Positions 41,447 to 53,333 of a stretch of DNA of 64,000 nucleotides are shown piece after piece (within the stretch, counting starts at the first letter, position 1; each line of letters begins with the position of its first letter). Position numbers and translations under genes: made by a program. This stretch comes from Candidatus Thorarchaeota archaeon (GTDB lineage: Archaea; Asgardarchaeota; Thorarchaeia; Thorarchaeales; Thorarchaeaceae): assembly GCA_963726195.1 (NCBI GenBank), contig CAVSBO010000013.1, positions 71,038 to 135,037 on the forward strand, read 5' to 3'. The notes under the pieces were generated by a model. That model had not been told where the DNA came from. It was given only the letters and a program-made list of their open reading frames with translations, and ran no database searches.

Positions 41447-43471
41447 CTACATACGTTCGACAGCATGTATCCCAAGTATTCTCAAACAGTTCGCCATGGT
41501 CGTTCTGAATGCTTTCACGAGTTCCAGCCGCGCTGCTGCTATTGCAGGCTCCGCCTTGAGTACGGGGCACGAGTCATAGAACTTGCTGAAGAGGTTTGCC
41601 AGACCGTAGCCATAGGAAGCAATCTTGTTCGAGTAGAAGCTCGTTCCCCATGTGGTTTTCCTTAAGCTCTTAACGGTCTCAAGAATCTCTTCCGGAAACA
41701 TCGCTACCGCTTTTGCCAGGGCAAATTCACTTGCCGACGATACCAATGTGAGATCGACTTCTCCTTGAGCGTCCTCTGAGGCTTTCTCAATAATCCTCAT
41801 GGCTCTCGCGTGTGAGTACTGGAGATACGGAGCGGCGTCTCCATCAAAGTCGAGTGCTTCGCTCCATCTGAAGGTTATCTTCCTGTCTGGAGAGGCCTTC
41901 AACAGCATGTATCTAACAGCCCCCGTTCCAACCTGGTGCGCTACTTGTCCCTTGAATTCATCGGTTTCGTCCGGGTTTCTCTTTGCCACTTCATCGCATG
42001 CCAGCTCAACTGCCTTATCGAGAATCTCATCTACTGTGTATCCAATCCATGTCCCTTTCCTTCCGGAGAAATCAGTATCCTCAAGGCCTACGAATTCATA
42101 GGCCACATGATGAGAGTTCTCACTCTGGGTCTTGTAGCCCAATAGATCAAGAATCGTGTAGATGAGTCTCTGGGGTTGGGCCTGTGAAGAACCTATCACG
42201 TTGAATACAACATCGAACTTTCCTATGTTCTTCTTCTTGCCCTTCAGAGATGTTCTGAGGACTTCCTTGCCATTGGGCTGCTCATCAAAGACTTGGTATC
42301 GGAAGGGATCTTGGACTATCCCGAATTTCCACATCTGAAGTGCCACATCAGCGCCTGTGTAGGTCCTTGTCCCGTCTGACCTGAACAATACCTTGTAGGG
42401 TTCCTTCATATCCTTGAATTCGTCGATGGTGTCCAGTTTGACGACAATGCATCCTGCTTTGTCTCCTTCATCGAGCCTGACGACGTTGTCACATCCCAGC
42501 ATCATGTCTTTGGCCGCCTCAAGCAGACCGCTGTGTGCAATGTCGCTTTCCCAGACTTGGTAATCATGATAGATGCCTAACCTGTAAGCCGTCTGGCATT
42601 GGGCTAAGAGACAGTTCGTTACCATGCCGATGCTTCTCTTCGAAGCTTCCGAGTCTGGGTATTCAAGCTGTCTCGCAATTTCCCGTATTTCGCGCTCCAC
42701 TTCCTCATCTGTTTCGAACGCTTTCTGGACATCAACGTATAGGCGTCCGAGATAGTGATCGTACTTGGTGTCTGTGGGATTCTCTGCATCATGAAGATGC
42801 TTCCACGTTCGCAGTGCGATTTCCAGCATTGGATTGTTTATGTAGTCAATTCTTTCATCATAATGATCGTAGTTGGTGTCTGTGGGTTTCTTTGTATCAT
42901 ACAGCAGCTTCCACGCTAGCTGTGCAATCTGCAACCCTAGGTTGTTTATGTAGTCAATTCTTGCGACGTCGTATCCCACGATCTCCAGCACGTTGCCAAG
43001 CATATCGCCGAGCACTGCATTTCTCGCGTGTCCGATGTGCCAGGGTTTGGACGGGTTGACTGCAGGAAACTCAATCAATGCCCGCCGACCCTTGTACGCA
43101 GTGGTTCGGCCATAGTCGTCGCCCAGCTGGTTCACAGCTTCGATTGCTATCTTCGCAAACTGACCGCGATTCAAGAAGAGATTCACATAGGGCCCCTGCG
43201 ACTCGGCGTGCTCAAAGACTGGCATTGCCTCCAGGCGTGCCGTGATCTTCTCAACGATTTCGTTTGCGATTTGTGCGGGGTTCTTCCTGAGCTGTTTGGC
43301 AAGCTGAAATGCTATCGTTGAGGCAATATCACCAAGAGCCGGGTCCGGTGGAATCTCGATTGATTCTCGCACTCTCGCGTCATCAATCTGCGTCACTTCA
43401 ACGAGAAGCGAGATGGCGAGCTCTTTGGTTGCGTCCCACGGATTCTTGAACTGCCCATCACTGGTTGCCAT
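41447..43471 (-). CDS. argS: Arginyl-tRNA synthetase with 36-aa internal duplication
   Basis: NPSKPWHIGHARN (HIGH), RSDGT.TY, FSGRKG, PYLQYSHAR, FY..CPVL, C-terminal ERM. Confidence 0.95.
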   Translation of the reverse strand: MATSDGQFKNPWDATKELAISLLVEVTQIDDARVRESIEIPPDPALGDIASTIAFQLAKQLRKNPAQIANEIVEKITARLEAMPVFEHAESQGPYVNLFLNRGQFAKIAIEAVNQLGDDYGRTTAYKGRRALIEFPAVNPSKPWHIGHARNAVLGDMLGNVLEIVGYDVARIDYINNLGLQIAQLAWKLLYDTKKPTDTNYDHYDERIDYINNPMLEIALRTWKHLHDAENPTDTKYDHYLGRLYVDVQKAFETDEEVEREIREIARQLEYPDSEASKRSIGMVTNCLLAQCQTAYRLGIYHDYQVWESDIAHSGLLEAAKDMMLGCDNVVRLDEGDKAGCIVVKLDTIDEFKDMKEPYKVLFRSDGTRTYTGADVALQMWKFGIVQDPFRYQVFDEQPNGKEVLRTSLKGKKKNIGKFDVVFNVIGSSQAQPQRLIYTILDLLGYKTQSENSHHVAYEFVGLEDTDFSGRKGTWIGYTVDEILDKAVELACDEVAKRNPDETDEFKGQVAHQVGTGAVRYMLLKASPDRKITFRWSEALDFDGDAAPYLQYSHARAMRIIEKASEDAQGEVDLTLVSSASEFALAKAVAMFPEEILETVKSLRKTTWGTSFYSNKIASYGYGLANLFSKFYDSCPVLKAEPAIAAARLELVKAFRTTMANCLRILGIHAVERM
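42752..42962. repeat. Diverged 108-bp tandem duplication inside argS
   Basis: atagtgatcgtacttggtgtctgtggg...tgtttatgtagtcaattctt recurs with a period of 108 nt. Confidence 0.9.
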
Positions 43472-45891: not shown

Positions 45892-47229
45892 CTATCTCGA
45901 CAACATGATTACTTCACGCTGCATAATCTGCCCTCTCTTTCTCTCAGGCAGACGAGGACGATTAGTCTTGATACCTGTCTTTTCGTCAAGCAATGCCTTG
46001 TTCATGATCGAACCCTTGAGCAAGAGTGGTATCACGCTGAAATCTGTCTTGCTCAAGAGACGCCCGAGGTCAACTCTGACTATTCCATCTCTCGAGTTTA
46101 TTACCGGAAGTGTCATACCTATTCTTCCATTGACCTTTAGGCAAGACCCGATGCTCGATATGGCATCGCGGTACAGAGTCGATAATTCCCTGATTGACTT
46201 CTCTGCCTCTCGCTTGCCGGGCTGCTCCGAGTAAGCTGGACCCAGATGTGGTTCGAAGGCAGCGGCATCGACCTTCGACTGCACCAGCGTTGCGGCTTCC
46301 CGAGCATCGCCCTTGATCATCTCGTACTTCAACTTGCGGCCCAGTTCGTTCTCTAACCATTTCATGTTGTTCTTGCTGCCTTCGACTGCTTTCGCGTCAG
46401 TATCTATGCCCACGCAACTCATGCCAAGAAGAGCTGCTTCCATTAGAATCGTGCCCGAGCCGCAGAACGGGTCCAGTATTGTATCTCCCGCCTTTGCACC
46501 GGCAAGGTTGAGGAGTGTTCTACAAATCTTGGGGCTAGTACTTATTTCCGCAGAGACATAGGGTCTGGTCTCGTCCCTGCGCTGTTGCGAGATTGAGTCG
46601 TAGGCTGCAACGGTCTTTCCAATGTACAGGCTCTTCTGAGTGAAGACCGCCAATATCTCGGCATTCGGAGAATCAAGAAGGCCGTACTTTACGAGTGTTT
46701 GCGGCCAGAGAGCAGTATTCAGTCGATCCGGTTTCCTTTTGTCCGGTCCTTCATAAACAAAGTAGTCCACCTTCTTTGCTCCTAATGTCGCCAGCCTTTC
46801 CTTTACCTCCTCGTCCAAAGCTATGGTGAAGCGTTTCAGGTTTACGGAGGTGTCATTCCACATCGGATACGTGCTCATGCCAAATCTGATTCTCTGATCG
46901 CCAACGGTCTTCCAAACATCGGATATCCAAGGACAGCCAAGCAGTTTCTTCCTGTCCTTCTGGATAATCCTCCCTTTTGTGGGAAAAGCGGCCTTTGCCA
47001 TGCCGTGATCGTACGCAGCGACAGCTCTGCCAGTTTTGAAGCACCCACCAAGTGCAGACTGAATACCCGTCAGTTGTTCGTCATTCACATCGTCAGCAAT
47101 GCCTAGAATCACTGCCTTTCTTGAGAAATCCTTGACCCCTGCCTTGAAACCCTGGTCCTCAAGATGTACCAACAGCTCCGCTATACTAAGGAGCCAGTTG
47201 GAACCGAGAATGAATATGTATTCTTTCAA
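45892..47229 (-). CDS. tRNA m2G10-type methyltransferase (Trm11/TrmG10-like)
   Basis: RRD..RP, SPKICRTLLNL, ILDPFCGSGT, GID, GDA, EPHLG. Confidence 0.75.
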   Translation of the reverse strand: MKEYIFILGSNWLLSIAELLVHLEDQGFKAGVKDFSRKAVILGIADDVNDEQLTGIQSALGGCFKTGRAVAAYDHGMAKAAFPTKGRIIQKDRKKLLGCPWISDVWKTVGDQRIRFGMSTYPMWNDTSVNLKRFTIALDEEVKERLATLGAKKVDYFVYEGPDKRKPDRLNTALWPQTLVKYGLLDSPNAEILAVFTQKSLYIGKTVAAYDSISQQRRDETRPYVSAEISTSPKICRTLLNLAGAKAGDTILDPFCGSGTILMEAALLGMSCVGIDTDAKAVEGSKNNMKWLENELGRKLKYEMIKGDAREAATLVQSKVDAAAFEPHLGPAYSEQPGKREAEKSIRELSTLYRDAISSIGSCLKVNGRIGMTLPVINSRDGIVRVDLGRLLSKTDFSVIPLLLKGSIMNKALLDEKTGIKTNRPRLPERKRGQIMQREVIMLSR

Positions 47230-47320
47230 GACTTGGACTTCTCCAATTCCTCCAGCAGGAGCTTCGTGTAGATTGCGCCAAGGATAGGTTCGGGCGTCTC
47301 CGATATGAACGTGGGCTTGT
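47222..47320 (-). repeat. Orphan copy of nfo 3' end (att-like direct repeat 1)
   Basis: 99 bp, 10 mismatches to 51054-51152; encodes KPTFISETPEPILGAIYTKLLLEELEKSKS*, whose stop overlaps the trm11 TTG start. Confidence 0.9.
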
Positions 47321-47325
47321 GCCGT

Positions 47326-47670
47326 TCATTTTAAGTTGAACAAACTAGGATTTTTGTCCTTTGTCCTCTCAGGAACGGCACTGAGATTGTGAACATCGAT
47401 TATGTTTCGGGCGGCGTTGATGTCTGCGTGGATGTGCAAGCCGCAGGCCGGGCAATAGAAGTACTCTCCGCCCTTCTCCTCCACCTCGGAGTTCCTGCCG
47501 TGAACCCTGAGACCTTTCTGTCTGCAAACGTGGCAGGTTTGAGAGGTCCACGCAGGGTTCACTGTCCACACGCTGTGGGATGAGTGACCAAGGGACTGCC
47601 TTTCGTACCTAATCGTGTCAATCACTTGTCCCCACAGGTTGGCAGTGAGGGCCCACGAGAGACCCTTGTA
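47326..47670 (-). pseudogene. tnpB: TnpB C-terminal remnant
   Basis: VNPAWTSQTCHVC...YFYCPACGLHIHADINAARNI (Zn ribbon + RuvC III); RuvC I/II missing. Confidence 0.8.
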
Positions 47671-47917
47671 CCCGGCCGGGGCTTGGTACACAGTCGCAGT
47701 AGCCGGATGGTTCAGACAGTATGACATATTCAGCCCGGACCAGCAGCCAGGACGGAGGTATCTGGACATTTACTACGTGCAGAATGGGGCGGTAGTGAGT
47801 AGCTACGGCATACTAGACTATACGGACGGTACGAACTGGGTTTACCGTCGGGTCCTGTTCAATCTTCCATTCATGTGGGGCACAACAACAGACTTGCTTC
47901 GTGATTGGAAGAGGTAA
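47670..47917 (+). pseudogene. C-terminal fragment of an unknown aromatic-rich protein
   Basis: Open frame without a credible start, abutting the TnpB remnant. Confidence 0.3.
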
Positions 47918-48529
47918 TTCATGGGTTAGTGACTATGAACTGACAGCAGAATGGTGCAATGTCCAGATAACAATCGGGTTATCTTACTAGAGTCCTGATA
48001 GCGCCATCTTTGAGATAGCTCAAGTGCCACAAGAACGCCGACAGCTCCCATCGGTCCAACGATTCTTTCGGGGATGATGGGAGCTTCGGGCCTTTTTTTG
48101 GAGCACTCTTTCAGGGTGCTGGACAACCCCTGTGTACAGGTCCCTCGAACCTGACCGAGTTGCAGTTCATCGCCAGGCAGATACGTTTGGATACAGGGGT
48201 GCCTTTCCGCCCAAAGATGGCGGGGGCCTTCAAACTCATGAAATCGAGTTTGCATCTTCTTCACCTCGACCTCAGATTCGTCCCAGCCGGCACAAACTCC
48301 TGTGACAGAATGTCCATATCTGTACAGCCTCATGACAGCCGCTCCGTACGGTACACGGCTCTATGCTATCCTGATGGTGCAGCCATGTTTTCTAGAAACG
48401 TATGTCTGCTCTAGAACTCACTCAAGGGCGCACCGAAACTAGACTAATATTCAGTTGTCGTCCACGCTTGGTCGAAAAGAAGTGACAATTATGGGGAGCT
48501 CACACTTCCAAGTTTTAGATGAAAACCGT

Positions 48530-49750
48530 ATGGTGGGCATCTCAACTGCGGCCATGGTAGCTCTTGGTTTGATGCTGCCGATGTTTGCAGGTGTGGCTTC
48601 GGCTTACGTTTCTCATCCTGCATCGTTCGTGGGCGTGCCAATCCAAGACACCATTTTCGCAAACATAACTGACAAAAAGCCAGATTCGGCGATGCTGCCG
48701 GGGGGTGTCATCCACAAGACGCAAGACACTATCGAGATCAGCAAACCAGACTACTCCCGTCTTCCAAGTGTCAATCTCACAGAGGCAATTGAAAGCGCTC
48801 GCGCTTTCTTGCGGGGTGTCTCTTATCTCTCAGCCCTGTCTTTCGAGTTCAACTCCAGCCAACCTCCGGAGAACCACCTCTGGCCACTCAAGTTCTCAGC
48901 GGCAAATTACATTGTTTACGTTGAGGTGAATTCAATCTCGGGACGTGTTGTGGGATTTTCGTGGGATTGGGTTGGGAATTCACCCGTTCCGTACATCAAG
49001 GATGTCAATAAGACTCAGACACTCAATGCACAAGCAGTAGATGAAAAAGCAGTAGAGTTCCTAAAAGCTATGAATTACACTCTTTCACCCTTCTGTAGGG
49101 TCCTCGGTCCGACTCTGGGACCCAGCGCTGCCTTTCCGAATTATGGTCGTCTGCCGTATGGAATGTCATCATACTTCACGCTGTTGTTCTACAACGTCAT
49201 GAATAATACATTCGTTCCAGACAACGTGGTCTCGTTAGACCTTGACATAGAAACCGGTGACATATTGGGATTCTGCTACATCTGGACGTATATCAAATCA
49301 ATTCCCGTAGAAGGTATCATCAGTGCTTCAACGGCGGAACGCGTTGCCCTAGCTGTCTGTGCATTCTACTACACCGACATTCAGGTCACTTCAAGTATGT
49401 TGGTTCTTGAGAACTGGGGAAGGTTCTGGGGAGAAAACGTGACCGATTTGTCATATCGACTAGCATGGGTTGTTCTCGGCACTTACTCGACCGGTTCCTC
49501 TGTGCCCAATCCATACCCCATTTCGTGCAAGCTCTACGTAGAAGTTAACCCGTTGAGTGGCACCGTGTATGCTGGTCCTCCATTTGTCCAGTATTGGAGC
49601 GGACCTAATGGTGGGCCTATCACACAGCCCGCTGGAGTCGCGATGGTGTACGATGTCTGGGTACTGGCTCTCGCCCTCATGATTGCCGCCCTATCATTTG
49701 TCTTTGTGAAGAAACTCGTTCCGAGTATGCCAGCCGCGAGTGTAGGCTGA
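48530..49750 (+). CDS. Secreted, C-terminally anchored surface protein with PepSY/YcdB-like repeats
   Basis: Signal peptide (..AGVASA), repeated EAIESARAFL / VEVNSISGRVV / LDLDIETGDIL / VEVNPLSGTV units, many NxS/T sequons, C-terminal TM. Confidence 0.6.
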   Translation: MVGISTAAMVALGLMLPMFAGVASAYVSHPASFVGVPIQDTIFANITDKKPDSAMLPGGVIHKTQDTIEISKPDYSRLPSVNLTEAIESARAFLRGVSYLSALSFEFNSSQPPENHLWPLKFSAANYIVYVEVNSISGRVVGFSWDWVGNSPVPYIKDVNKTQTLNAQAVDEKAVEFLKAMNYTLSPFCRVLGPTLGPSAAFPNYGRLPYGMSSYFTLLFYNVMNNTFVPDNVVSLDLDIETGDILGFCYIWTYIKSIPVEGIISASTAERVALAVCAFYYTDIQVTSSMLVLENWGRFWGENVTDLSYRLAWVVLGTYSTGSSVPNPYPISCKLYVEVNPLSGTVYAGPPFVQYWSGPNGGPITQPAGVAMVYDVWVLALALMIAALSFVFVKKLVPSMPAASVG

Positions 49751-49899
49751 TTCCGACGCATGCAAACCGAAGCGAGCGTGTTGATAGTGCGGGATATTAC
49801 TCACCCTCACATTGGTAAGTCGCGGCTGGAGCGTTGTGAACTGCCGGTCGCGATGCCTTTATTGCGAAAGACTAGGTTTGTTCTCAAGACGAGGTGGGC

Positions 49900-50376
49900 A
49901 TGGTTTTGAGCGGTGGCACAGAAGACAAGAATAACGAGGGCCCGGAACCTGAGGACCTTGCAAGTCAACTCAATGGAAATACCCTCGTAGTCTACTGGTT
50001 CATGCTCCGCAACAGCAAGCCATACAGTGCTCGAGAGATTCAGAGAAAGACAGGGATTTCCAGCTCGAGTCTTGCCCTTCATCATCTCAACAAGCTGATC
50101 AGCTTGGGTCTAGTTGGAACGGATAGTGAAGGTCGCTACGTTATATCACGCAGAATACGGCCCGGTCTGCTCAGTTTGTTTGTTGGTTCAGGTAGGTTGT
50201 TCATACCCAGGTTTGTGTTCTATTCTGTCTTTACGACGGTTCTCTTGCTCTCTAGTCTGTTCCTCTTTCTGACGCATCTCGATACAGCGAGCATACTTCT
50301 TATCATGAGCCTGTCAATTGTCAGTCTGATGCTCTGGGTCGAAACTGTAAGACTTTGGAAAGTGCAGCCTATTTAG
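49900..50376 (+). CDS. Membrane-anchored winged-helix transcription regulator (wHTH + 2 TM)
   Basis: GNTLVVYWFML...SAREIQRKTGISSSSLALHHLNKL..LGLV....G.Y, then FIPR and two TM helices; SD GAGGTG. Confidence 0.75.
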   Translation: MVLSGGTEDKNNEGPEPEDLASQLNGNTLVVYWFMLRNSKPYSAREIQRKTGISSSSLALHHLNKLISLGLVGTDSEGRYVISRRIRPGLLSLFVGSGRLFIPRFVFYSVFTTVLLLSSLFLFLTHLDTASILLIMSLSIVSLMLWVETVRLWKVQPI

Positions 50377-50424
50377 CAGGAACACTCCTCGCACGCACAC
50401 GAAGAAGCACACAGAAAAGAAGGG

Positions 50425-50673
50425 TTGAGGGATTTTCAAAATCATGTGCGGAAATACAACTGGTGGGGTTCTACACGCGAAGAGCTGTCATTGACCACCC
50501 CCGGAAACTGGCGGCGCGATGTGAAAGAAGCTGTGAACAGACTTATGGAAAGTGTCAATATCGAAGTTGTGAGGCGGTACCGGTACATGATCACAAAGAA
50601 GGAGATTGACCAAAGAATCCAGCTTGAGAGGCTCTTTGAAGCAAGATTCCCTGACTCTGATGTTCTGAAGTGA
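50425..50673 (+). pseudogene. Short ORF or gene fragment, unknown
   Basis: 82-aa open frame inside the island. Confidence 0.3.
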
Positions 50674-50702
50674 GACAAGCACTGAATCCGTTAAGCGTCT
50701 CA

Positions 50703-51000
50703 TTATAGGAGTGCTAGTGCGAGCGGTTTCATCCAGATTCTCGCAGGTTGCAGGGACCGCAGATTAGCTGAAGATTCTCCCATACTGTCAATCCTCCGGC
50801 GGCAACAGATACTATGTGATCCCCATGCAACTGATGAAAGTCCGAGGGCCTCGGGAAAAGCTTTGAGCAGAGGGGGCAGTGAAACTCCCCTCTCCATAGG
50901 ACGAGAGAGGAACCTTCCCCACTTTGTGTCAATCCACTTCTCAACCCTTTGAGCAAAGATATACTGGGGAACCTCGGGAATCTCGTTCTCAGGGAATGAG
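50703..51000 (-). pseudogene. HNH endonuclease remnant
   Basis: CPLC...HGDHIVSVAAGGLTVWENLQLICGPCN; upstream part frameshifted or absent. Confidence 0.7.
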
Positions 51001-51053
51001 GAATTGAATCGCAGGGTCTTTAGCAATCGGAGTGCTGGCAATCATAGCAATAG

Positions 51054-51152
51054 TCTTTCAAGACTGAGACTTCTCCAGTTCTTCCAGCAGGAGCTTCGCG
51101 TAGAGTGCGCCGAGAATAGGTTCGGGCGTCTCCGATATGAACGTGGGTTTAT
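51054..51152 (-). repeat. nfo 3' end, direct repeat 2 (functional copy)
   Basis: Matches 47222-47320 at an offset of 3832. Confidence 0.9.
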
Positions 51153-51912
51153 ACCCTGTCTCCCTAACAATTTCCATGAGTGGCAGAATATCGGGGCCCC
51201 AACTTTCTCCCAAGGGCCTATGAGCCTTCTCGCCAGCGGATGTGAACTCAATCCCGCTCACATGAAAATGCATATTGTCTACAAACCTGCTGCCAAGGGC
51301 GCGTTCGAACGTTCCCAATACCTCGAGGTAGCTCTTCTTGTCGCTCATGCCTCCCTGCGTTATCGCGTGCAGGTGAGCCCAGTCTATTGTCGGTATCAGT
51401 CCTTCGACATCATTACACAACTCCACCAGCTCATCAATTGAACCGAAGACTCCAAGCTTCCCAGCAGTCTCTGGAGCCAGCATGACTCCTCCGGTTTGAT
51501 GCCCTATTGTTTCCCAAACCTCCAGCAGACTACTCTTCACGATAGGGTAGGCTTCCTCAGGTGTTAGCCCACTGTACCCGCCCACGTGAAAAACGATTCG
51601 GGTGACATTCATTAGTGGTGCGAATTTTAACGACTTGACGAGCCTTTCAATGGAGTTCTGCCTTGTCTGTTTGCTCTTTGAGACCAGACTGATGTAGTAT
51701 GCCGCATGCATGCTCATCACAATCCCGCATTCCTTTGCAGCCGTGCCGAGCCTCTTAGCGGCATCCTCGCTCATTCTTAGACCGTAAACAGCAGCGTACT
51801 CAAGCGCATCTAGACCCGCATCTCGTATCATGTTGAACGCCTTACGGGGATTGCCGCTCGTGTCCGAAGGATATCCCGCAGGGCCAAAGTGTATCTCTGC
51901 CGAACTAGTCAC
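51058..51912 (-). CDS. nfo: Endonuclease IV (archaeal AP endonuclease)
   Basis: FGPAG, HAAYYISL, VFH.G, PETAGK...FGS, DWAH, HFH.SGIE....GE..H, ISETP. Confidence 0.9.
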   Translation of the reverse strand: MTSSAEIHFGPAGYPSDTSGNPRKAFNMIRDAGLDALEYAAVYGLRMSEDAAKRLGTAAKECGIVMSMHAAYYISLVSKSKQTRQNSIERLVKSLKFAPLMNVTRIVFHVGGYSGLTPEEAYPIVKSSLLEVWETIGHQTGGVMLAPETAGKLGVFGSIDELVELCNDVEGLIPTIDWAHLHAITQGGMSDKKSYLEVLGTFERALGSRFVDNMHFHVSGIEFTSAGEKAHRPLGESWGPDILPLMEIVRETGYKPTFISETPEPILGALYAKLLLEELEKSQS

Positions 51913-51946: not shown

Positions 51947-53333
51947 TGCTCGGAACCAGTCATGACGTCATTTCCTTGCGGCAACGTGAGCACTTTATCT
52001 GAGTGGGCTTTCGAAACAACAGGGGGTTCCGAACAGTTAGTGGATTTAATATCATTTGGCACGACACATAGAGAGGTAATTGACTGCGCTGAATGGCCGA
52101 CCGAGGTCGTGAGAACACGAGAATTACGCGGGCCTACAAGACAGAGCTGGAACCCAACAGCGCCCAGCGTTCGGCCATGCTCAAGCACGCCAGGACAGCG
52201 AGGTTCGCGTACAACTGGGGGCTCGCTCGCCGAACTGAGGAATACGGCAAGACAGGATCTTCATCGAACGCTATCCAGCTGCACAGGCAGTTGAACGCCT
52301 TGAAGAAGACAGAGTTCCCATGGATGTACGAGGTCTCCAAGTGCGCACCGCAAGAGGCCCTCCGAGACCTCGATAGGGCGTACAAGAACTTCTTCGAGGG
52401 GCGAGCGAAATATCCGAAGTTCAAGCACAGAAAGCTCGGTGCAGGCAGTTTCAGGCTCACAGGATCAATCAGGGTGTTCAAGGACTCCGTGCAGTTGCCC
52501 CGGATCGGCATGGTCAGACTCAAGGAGAGAGGCTATCTCCCAATTGAGAGAGTCCACGTGCTGTCCGCGACTATTTCAGAAAGGGCAGGAAAATGGTTCG
52601 TGAGCCTTCATGTAGAGAAAGAGATCGAGGTCAGGAATAATACTGGACCTGTGGTAGGGGTTGACGTTGGTATCTCGAATCTCGCCACTGTCAGTGACGG
52701 TACTATCATTTCAAATCCGAAACCTCTGTTGCGCTTCGAGAGAAAGAAGAAACGAATCCAGAGGTTTCTTGCAAGGAAGAAGAAAGGAAGCAATAACCGG
52801 GTCCATACGACAATGCGGTTGGCCCGGCTCGAACTCAGGATTGCTAACATCCGGAGAGACGCCCACCACAAAGCCACAACGATGCTGGCGAGAACCAAGT
52901 CTGTCATCGGTGTGGAAAGCCTCAATATGGCGGGACTACTGAAGAACCATCGCGTCGCAAAGCATCTCGCGGATGCAGGCATAGGAGAGTTCCTTGGCCA
53001 GCTGAAGTACAAGACGGTATGGAATGGAAGCACAGTCGTGGAGGCTGACCAGTTCTTCCCGTCCACGAAACGATGTTCCAGCTGCGGTGCAGTCAAGGAC
53101 GAGATGCTGCTTTCTGAGAGAACATACAAGTGCGAGAGTTGTGGTTTCGAGGCCGACCGTGACCTGAACGCTGCAATTAATCTGGCTTCAGTCGCCGCCA
53201 GTTGGGCGGAGACTCAAAACGCCTGCGAGAGCGGAGAGGTCCATGCCTCTACTGGAGGCAGGTGCTCCGCGATGAAGCAGGAACCGAACACTGTTTGGGA
53301 CGGTGTCCCAAATGGGTAAGTTTCGGACAACGG
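51947..53333 (+). mobile_element. Solo-tnpB insertion sequence (no tnpA in element); left end approximate
   Basis: tnpB between nfo and DGGGPS; right end ...GGGTAAGTTTCGGACAACGG; imperfect inverted repeat 51947-52035 upstream. Confidence 0.55.
52093..53319 (+). CDS. tnpB: TnpB RNA-guided nuclease (IS605/IS607-type OrfB), intact
   Basis: RAYKTEL HTH, ARFAYNW, YPKFK, RuvC VGVDVG / GVESL / DRDLNAAINL, CSSCG..CESCG Zn ribbon. Confidence 0.95.
   Translation: MADRGRENTRITRAYKTELEPNSAQRSAMLKHARTARFAYNWGLARRTEEYGKTGSSSNAIQLHRQLNALKKTEFPWMYEVSKCAPQEALRDLDRAYKNFFEGRAKYPKFKHRKLGAGSFRLTGSIRVFKDSVQLPRIGMVRLKERGYLPIERVHVLSATISERAGKWFVSLHVEKEIEVRNNTGPVVGVDVGISNLATVSDGTIISNPKPLLRFERKKKRIQRFLARKKKGSNNRVHTTMRLARLELRIANIRRDAHHKATTMLARTKSVIGVESLNMAGLLKNHRVAKHLADAGIGEFLGQLKYKTVWNGSTVVEADQFFPSTKRCSSCGAVKDEMLLSERTYKCESCGFEADRDLNAAINLASVAASWAETQNACESGEVHASTGGRCSAMKQEPNTVWDGVPNG

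Follow-up and report, generated by a model that had tools for sequence, protein, structure and literature searches.

Some integrative islands at protein-coding genes carry a replacement for the 3' end of their target, as exemplified by e14 and phi21 at icd, and in islands of this type a diverged, mostly synonymous replacement of 100-200 bp keeps the gene open while the native end is displaced. In fungal mitochondria, mobile endonuclease ORFs bring a foreign C-terminus, as described for atp6 of Allomyces macrogynus and for atp6, atp9, cox2 and nad3 of Glomus (PMC3630166). In an IS607 element that has been studied (10.1101/2023.11.20.567912), TAM and insertion motif coincide and CGG closes the scaffold; the element accepts mismatched cores, and its TnpB causes homing to the empty site. 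Restorative homing of the IS607/OMEGA kind (PMC13565253), intronless homing and the fungal foreign-C-terminus elements are all known; in a partial search of the literature we found no published description of an RNA-guided version of a homing element with a foreign C-terminus. Here we analyse an archaeal locus at which such a combination had been proposed from the sequence alone.

Anatomy of the nfo locus

The window, that is, the entire stretch of 64,000 nucleotides that was analysed, corresponds to C13:71038-135037 of the genome of a Candidatus Thorarchaeota archaeon, and the closest named relatives of its proteins belong to Thorarchaeia. On the minus strand, an intact nfo gene is followed by a 3.7-kb insert, a tnpB remnant, an orphan 3' end of nfo and a methyltransferase gene (Table 1). 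The intact gene, whose cluster members are named deoxyribonuclease-4, consists of a host 5' part and a foreign 3' end. The orphan adjoins the transposon right end directly at 47321, as the sequence-only reading had noticed, and forms with the intact gene a direct repeat of 105 nt (89% identity, spacing 3832 bp). Its stop overlaps the TTG of the methyltransferase gene, and since nfo runs into the methyltransferase gene across this native junction in 29 of 29 relatives, the orphan is the native end and the upstream copy the newcomer.

Table 1. Features of the nfo locus (window positions) and of three further inserts in the same genome (contig positions)
Feature	Position	Strand	Remarks
Intact nfo, endonuclease IV-like TIM barrel, 284 aa	51058..51912	-	Pfam AP_endonuc_2, E 3e-26
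Hot spot of private third-position changes, -19 to +6	51148..51172	-	covers seed and consensus AG-GG-T site (51157-51153)
Foreign replacement 3' end of nfo	51051..51172	-	reaches ~4 codons into methyltransferase start
Gene fragment	50891..50990	-	blastn: 80% identical gene in repeated segment on contigs C8 and C14
Cargo, ArsR-like winged-helix and membrane protein, 158 aa	49900..50376	+	common in Thorarchaeia
Cargo, predicted secreted or membrane protein, 419 aa	48491..49750	+	homologues at 47% and 38%, also in G002
Broken 3' part of secreted repeat-domain gene	47690..48170	+	tblastn to C-terminal repeats of S8 peptidase in L058
tnpB 3' remnant, about 121 aa	47326..~47690	-	Pfam Cas12f1-like_TNB, E 1e-15
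Transposon right end and predicted omega-RNA 3' stem	47322..47383	-	terminates in GG core (47323-47322)
Predicted 20-nt guide, beginning of displaced nfo fragment	47302..47321	-	
Displaced native nfo 3' end (orphan)	47219..47321	-	host type except 47295 and 47286
TIGR01177/Trm11-like methyltransferase, native downstream neighbour of nfo	45892..47229	-	
argF-like 3' end, TnpB-free insert	C3:475569-484655		
pycB-like 5' end, TnpB-free insert	C4:62937-69268		
DUF35-like 3' end, TnpB-free insert	C4:102521-107248		

The empty allele (L051) is represented by a peat contig that lacks exactly 3832 bp and stems from a population with 99% identity in the flanking genes; this allele and three further close ones all read GGC TAC AAG at the insertion site. 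When compared with L051, the restored copy differs at 20 of 122 nt in the patch 51172-51051, as against 4 of 397 nt upstream (P 3e-10). The patch begins 19 nt upstream of the predicted guide, and 5 of its differences change an amino acid, so that the restored gene is not the recoded self copy of the sequence-only reading but carries a foreign patch. Two of the amino-acid changes (IS to VR) match G002, and the closest known allele differs from the patch at 13 positions. Counted from 47321, the part from +7 to +103 is close to that of a sister lineage (6 differences over 97 nt with respect to L053); the part from -19 to +6 is unlike that of every relative. These 25 nt hold 6 of the 14 genome-private sites of nfo, all of them third codon positions, and a codon scan supports the clustering of private changes at the insertion point (P about 5e-5). 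No pattern match to a donor of the patch was obtained in GTDB contigs, and no donor-type protein is among the top nfo matches.

The orphan differs from L051 at 3 positions, none of them between 47285 and 47219, and its markers 47295 and 47286 carry the base of the restored copy. Six markers on the left (-19 to -1) and these two on the right (+27 and +36) form short, conversion-like tracts, and such tracts fit co-conversion as well as an attachment-type crossover combined with repeat conversion.

Within the insert, the fragment of the secreted repeat-domain gene is joined head-to-head with the tnpB remnant at about 47678-47690. Divergent copies of the cargo are present in two sequencing runs (X1 and X2), where the match ends at 47678 and indels occur in the region of the tnpB/cargo joint. 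Cargo copies that are 91-96% alike are found in peat runs in which the core genes are 99% alike, and the pair formed by the ArsR-like and the 419-aa cargo genes occurs elsewhere with no TnpB detected (L046, L056 and L058). Elsewhere in the window, an unrelated, intact-looking 408-aa TnpB gene is inserted just upstream of nfo (52093-53319, plus strand); it has several copies in the genome at 78-87% identity and is missing at that place in a peat strain. A 108-bp tandem duplication (42752-42962; 81% identical) lies within a 674-aa ORF at 41447-43471.

The IS607-type family and its predicted guide

The family to which the transposon end at 47322 belongs has 24 right ends in this genome and 76 in total, the flanks of which are unrelated. 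In this genome most of these ends are those of 190-bp MITEs, and elements of 4-8 kb with cargo and a TnpB of ~720 aa occur as well. The serine transposase of the element on C3 matches the NCBIfam model IS607 (NF033518) with 174 bits (cut-off 110), and the TnpB family occurs in 41 of 86 Thorarchaeia-family genomes. The right ends are conserved up to a GG core, whose second base is G in 54, A in 13, C in 6 and T in 3 of the 76 ends; the following base, a pyrimidine in 72 of 76 ends, is paired within the terminal stem; from +2 onwards the sequence is random. Twenty-one of the 24 right ends of this genome end in GG, and left ends start with GG. The inverted repeat in which the tnpB remnant had been said to end is borne out: a GCCGTT/AACGG stem (fold z -2.25) closes at 47321-47322 and is conserved, with a sharp boundary, across the 76 right ends, with few compensatory changes, so that the structure is supported mainly by conservation. 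All 12 curated left junctions read G-GG, and the family target is G-GG-T. The longer form AG-GG-T is supported by three empty sites, namely a contig (C9) on which a MITE site is empty and two in-frame reconstructions of split genes, all scarless and devoid of a target duplication. Family members also interrupt genes for an SDR protein and a DNA methyltransferase, and no replacement end accompanies them there.

The copy next to nfo has decayed, as proposed before. What is left of tnpB encodes just the zinc finger and RuvC-III; the D of RuvC-I and the E of RuvC-II are gone, and judged by these residues its TnpB is catalytically dead; tnpA is absent as well, and a left-end HMM finds no left end within 47323-51200. 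An intact 722-aa TnpB with the RuvC D-E-D triad is encoded on C16. The closest paralogue of the remnant in the genome (C13:52647-54815, L034; 82% identical) is a frameshifted tnpB of ~720 aa flanked by genes for a parvulin and a ribbon-helix-helix protein; it lacks a recognisable left end, and its predicted guide would cover the parvulin ribosome-binding site.

Several further family members deserve mention in their own right. Three IS607-type elements of 7.6-8.2 kb with a TnpB of ~720 aa (L031-L033; C16:21557-29170, C8:106585-114215 and C3:854967-863118) each carry a divergent cargo gene of 1200-1700 aa which is not assigned to a family. One MITE site is found both filled and empty within the same assembly (C10:39218 and C9:515), which suggests a strain mixture or recent movement. 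In a subgroup (L152, L153, L154, L194, L200 and L208), similarity extends beyond the usual core (…GTGGCT…AGC), and the true right end may lie further out.

At nfo, the element ends with the GG core at 47323-47322, and base 47321 is derived from the target. The predicted guide starts at 47321 or 47320, since 47321, albeit target-derived, is nearly always a pyrimidine in the family and is paired in the stem. The claim that this guide would match the empty nfo allele proved correct in substance: the agreement with real empty alleles (L051, L053-55, L164, L167 and G002) is 19 of 20, and the single mismatch is the orphan's own T to C change at +1, which turns a Tyr codon into His. We considered a 1-nt deletion at the joint (insertion at CC-GG-C) and dropped it, as a reading free of indels needs one substitution and fits the family: the core GC would have been resolved to GG, followed by T to C at +1, and 22 of the 76 ends have a second core base other than G.

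With the restored copy, the predicted guide shares 17 of 20 bases, with mismatches at +1, +3 and +6. The sequence-only reading, which had counted two seed changes, was therefore right that the seed differs, and the mismatches do lie inside the significant cluster of private third-position changes, but there are three of them and that at +1 is the change of the orphan. The 'long perfect match' beyond the seed is indeed continuous, yet limited to 32 nt (+7 to +38), after which differences resume. With 3 of 7 positions changed in the seed and 5 of 19 in the stretch upstream (P 0.64; register shifted by one base), the seed is no more changed than its surroundings, and the cluster hence spans the site rather than the seed alone. 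Among 46 distinct nfo alleles, 11 are at most one mismatch from the guide, so the protospacer is well conserved.

The TAM can be predicted from the insertion sites by analogy with the studied IS607 element (10.1101/2023.11.20.567912). At the target, the restored allele reads A-G-G-G, which is the consensus, and the conspecific empty allele C-G-G-C; among the 46 distinct alleles, GGG is offered by 6, only one of which has a perfect protospacer. The protospacer would thus favour the empty allele, and the predicted TAM the restored one. Moreover, as the family inserts at unrelated sites, identity of guide and flank is automatic: the guide equals the right flank at every insertion and is therefore not evidence of targeting.

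Origin of the restored gene

Recurrence at nfo with a recoded replacement had been expected if the locus were a homing island, and we find none. The C-terminus of nfo is single in all 74 other genomes of the family, the same search recovering both copies in this genome; nfo adjoins the methyltransferase gene, with no island, in 39 of 39 informative metagenome loci; the close nfo alleles that were retrieved are likewise free of the island; a pattern spanning the right end and nfo has 0 matches in JGI metagenomes; and the flank is duplicated upstream at 0 of 51 other element ends, 40 of which have at least 5 kb of upstream sequence (a positive control was run). The apparent duplicated flank at L188 was dismissed, as it starts at +130 and by eye resembles a tRNA attachment site. 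At L188 itself (G067:C69), 130 nt separate a family right end from an apparent tRNA gene that is partly duplicated 3.9 kb upstream, and the tnpB remnant there looks by eye as though it sits inside a tRNA-targeted island. Insertion of homologues at unrelated sites had been named beforehand as the sign of a chance insertion into an already orphaned repeat, and this is largely the picture obtained, since the homologues occupy unrelated sites and none of them is found again at nfo or has a replacement flank.

At least three other inserts of this genome lie between diverged duplicated gene ends, and neither a TnpB nor an integrase is found near them (Table 1). At the argF-like island, 6 of the first 27 nt differ compared with 6 of 85 thereafter (P 0.037), which is weaker than at nfo; as this cluster occurs where there is no TnpB, such clusters need no guide. 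The upstream argF-like copy has a 1-nt frameshift at the start of the repeat. A genome search yields no integrase at the nfo island or the argF-like island; the only tyrosine integrase is on C17, and no large serine recombinase was found in this genome, which is 89% complete. A cognate integrase could have been removed by deletion.

Based on this evidence, we favour, with a probability of about 0.55, the combination of a replacement-end island with an ordinary IS607 insertion that later decayed. A cargo island would have entered the 3' end of nfo and brought a diverged replacement which kept the gene whole, the native end being displaced 3.8 kb downstream. A member of the abundant IS607-type family would have inserted via its serine transposase into the native nfo sequence, at a near-consensus target (G-GC-T) with the core mismatch tolerated, and one later deletion, reaching from a cargo gene into tnpB, would have cost the element its left end, tnpA and five-sixths of tnpB on the 5' side. 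The guide of an expressed omega-RNA would have become nfo because the element inserted there, as holds for any IS607 at any site. The seed mismatches would for the most part reflect how the replacement allele had diverged naturally, and as long as a TnpB remained active, be it in cis or in trans, they would have persisted and may have been selected for. The TnpB-free islands of the same genome, the cargo module found elsewhere with no TnpB detected, and the five amino-acid changes of the patch, two of them as in G002, argue for this explanation. Against it, the element must have hit a fragment of ~120 bp within about 20 nt of the crossover (by our estimate, <1% per island end), the island is devoid of an integrase, the hot spot of private changes is centred on the insertion point, and the two donor-type markers in the orphan require an extra conversion event.

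It is tempting to speculate instead that the locus is a true homing island, in which an IS607 TnpB has turned into a free-standing RNA-guided homing nuclease for cargo, although we regard this as unlikely. A TnpB devoid of its left end would have cut the empty nfo alleles of relatives at about +15 to +21, where a TnpB cut is generally expected, and repair would have copied the island in, the replacement end keeping the gene working and the seed region being locked in a cut-resistant state. The stretch from -19 to +6 would always be inherited from the element, because homogenisation of the seed would mean self-cleavage and the part further upstream has no template in the orphan; the rest of the replacement would be refreshed from successive hosts, and the nuclease would have been lost after the last transfer. 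Such homing explains the whole polymorphism at once, and the marker pattern most neatly: the private hot spot at -19 to +6, the likeness of +7 to +103 to the sister lineage (L053), and donor markers that reach only to +36 in the orphan but start at -19 in nfo, like co-conversion tracts around the predicted cut. Also in keeping with it are the conserved protospacer, cargo copies less alike than the core genes of the same runs, a tnpB remnant with no close paralogue in this genome (75% at best), and the homing driven by an IS607 TnpB in E. coli assays (10.1101/2023.11.20.567912). What remains of the original proposal are thus the empty alleles, the seed mismatches and the decay. Conversely, there is no recurrence in genomes, metagenome loci or pattern searches, the consensus G-GG-T target is on the restored allele and missing from the conspecific empty one, GGG and a perfect protospacer rarely coincide, the TnpB-free argF-like island of similar layout has a similar if weaker cluster, and no active enzyme resides at the locus. 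Since the likeness is in layout only and the recurrence test failed, we do not class the locus as a homing element.

Between homing and the favoured combination lies a one-off rescue with selection for a resistant allele, a course of events we consider doubtful. An IS607 insertion would have knocked out nfo, and foreign DNA would have restored it, entering on the left through homologous recombination and on the right through an illegitimate joint within tnpB; an allele would have withstood the residual guide, supplied in cis or in trans by an intact TnpB of the family, only if its seed was mismatched, and no spread would have followed. This makes the adjacency causal, explains the missing left end and active site by the single joint at 47678-47690, and finds a potential partner in the intact TnpB on C16. 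As the restored allele has the consensus target, the seed mismatches would be needed if the guide were still served. However, the incoming DNA needs a second joint at methyltransferase codon 4 and would hence already have been an island, a simple double crossover would have deleted the IS entirely, and the two donor markers of the orphan still require conversion. Two further ideas were rejected: the restored copy as a left-end junction, which leaves the upstream differences unexplained, and integration of a circle by a single crossover, which requires the same two markers in both parents.

Finally, a chimeric assembly of two strains in this metagenome-assembled genome appears highly improbable. 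It would accord with the empty allele in a 99% identical population, and the joint between right end and orphan is unbridged among the contig pieces listed for four runs. Yet the joints have only few bases in common, island pieces recur with 0-1 differences in two studies, one contig extends over the tnpB/cargo joint by 15-27 nt, and the transition from right end to nfo falls precisely on a core of the family type. The restored patch is uncovered in X1 and X2, which we did not count as absence since contigs drop rare variants.

Implications and relation to known systems

If homing were true, a housekeeping nuclease of a transposon could become a site-specific drive for unrelated cargo with the host gene unharmed, which would join OMEGA restorative homing with replacement-end homing elements, provide a testable route for the spread of islands in Asgard archaea that needs no integrases, and amount to a naturally occurring, RNA-guided equivalent of 'cleave and rescue' homing, which may be a strategy used repeatedly by Asgard archaea. 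If the ordinary explanation holds, the locus still documents cleanly in what way an accident could give rise to such a system. Independently, the analysis reveals an IS607 family widespread in Thorarchaeia, which has MITEs, cargo and a TnpB of ~720 aa, and a genome that holds several replacement-end islands devoid of integrases.

The family shares with CboIStron and other IS607 TnpB-omega-RNA elements (10.1101/2023.11.20.567912; PMC13565253) the serine transposase, the GG core and the G-rich target, as well as a scaffold that ends in CGG and has a non-G at -3, which would avoid self-cutting, a guide taken from the right flank and tolerance of non-matching cores. Unlike these elements, it has a TnpB of about 720 aa, full elements of 4-8 kb with cargo and many 190-bp MITEs, and no group I intron was noticed in it; the copy at nfo, which lacks the left end, tnpA and the active site, is confronted with a repaired version of its own target. 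Islands of the e14/phi21 type differ in that neither the nfo nor the argF-like island has an integrase. In the intronless homing of T4 Seg and Mob endonucleases (PMC13565253), self is likewise told from non-self by polymorphism in a conserved neighbour gene, and flanking markers are co-converted; there, however, neither a duplicated gene end nor a guide RNA is involved, and spread has been demonstrated, which is not the case at nfo. The Allomyces and Glomus elements use protein-guided enzymes of the LAGLIDADG or GIY-YIG kind; their mobility is backed by biochemistry and they occur repeatedly (PMC3630166), whereas the nuclease at nfo would be RNA-guided and is dead, and the locus is a singleton. 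In layout, these fungal elements are nonetheless matched by the nfo locus in (i) a host 5' part, (ii) a foreign replacement 3' end in frame, (iii) an endonuclease, and (iv) a displaced native end nearly identical to that of a sister taxon (PMC3630166).
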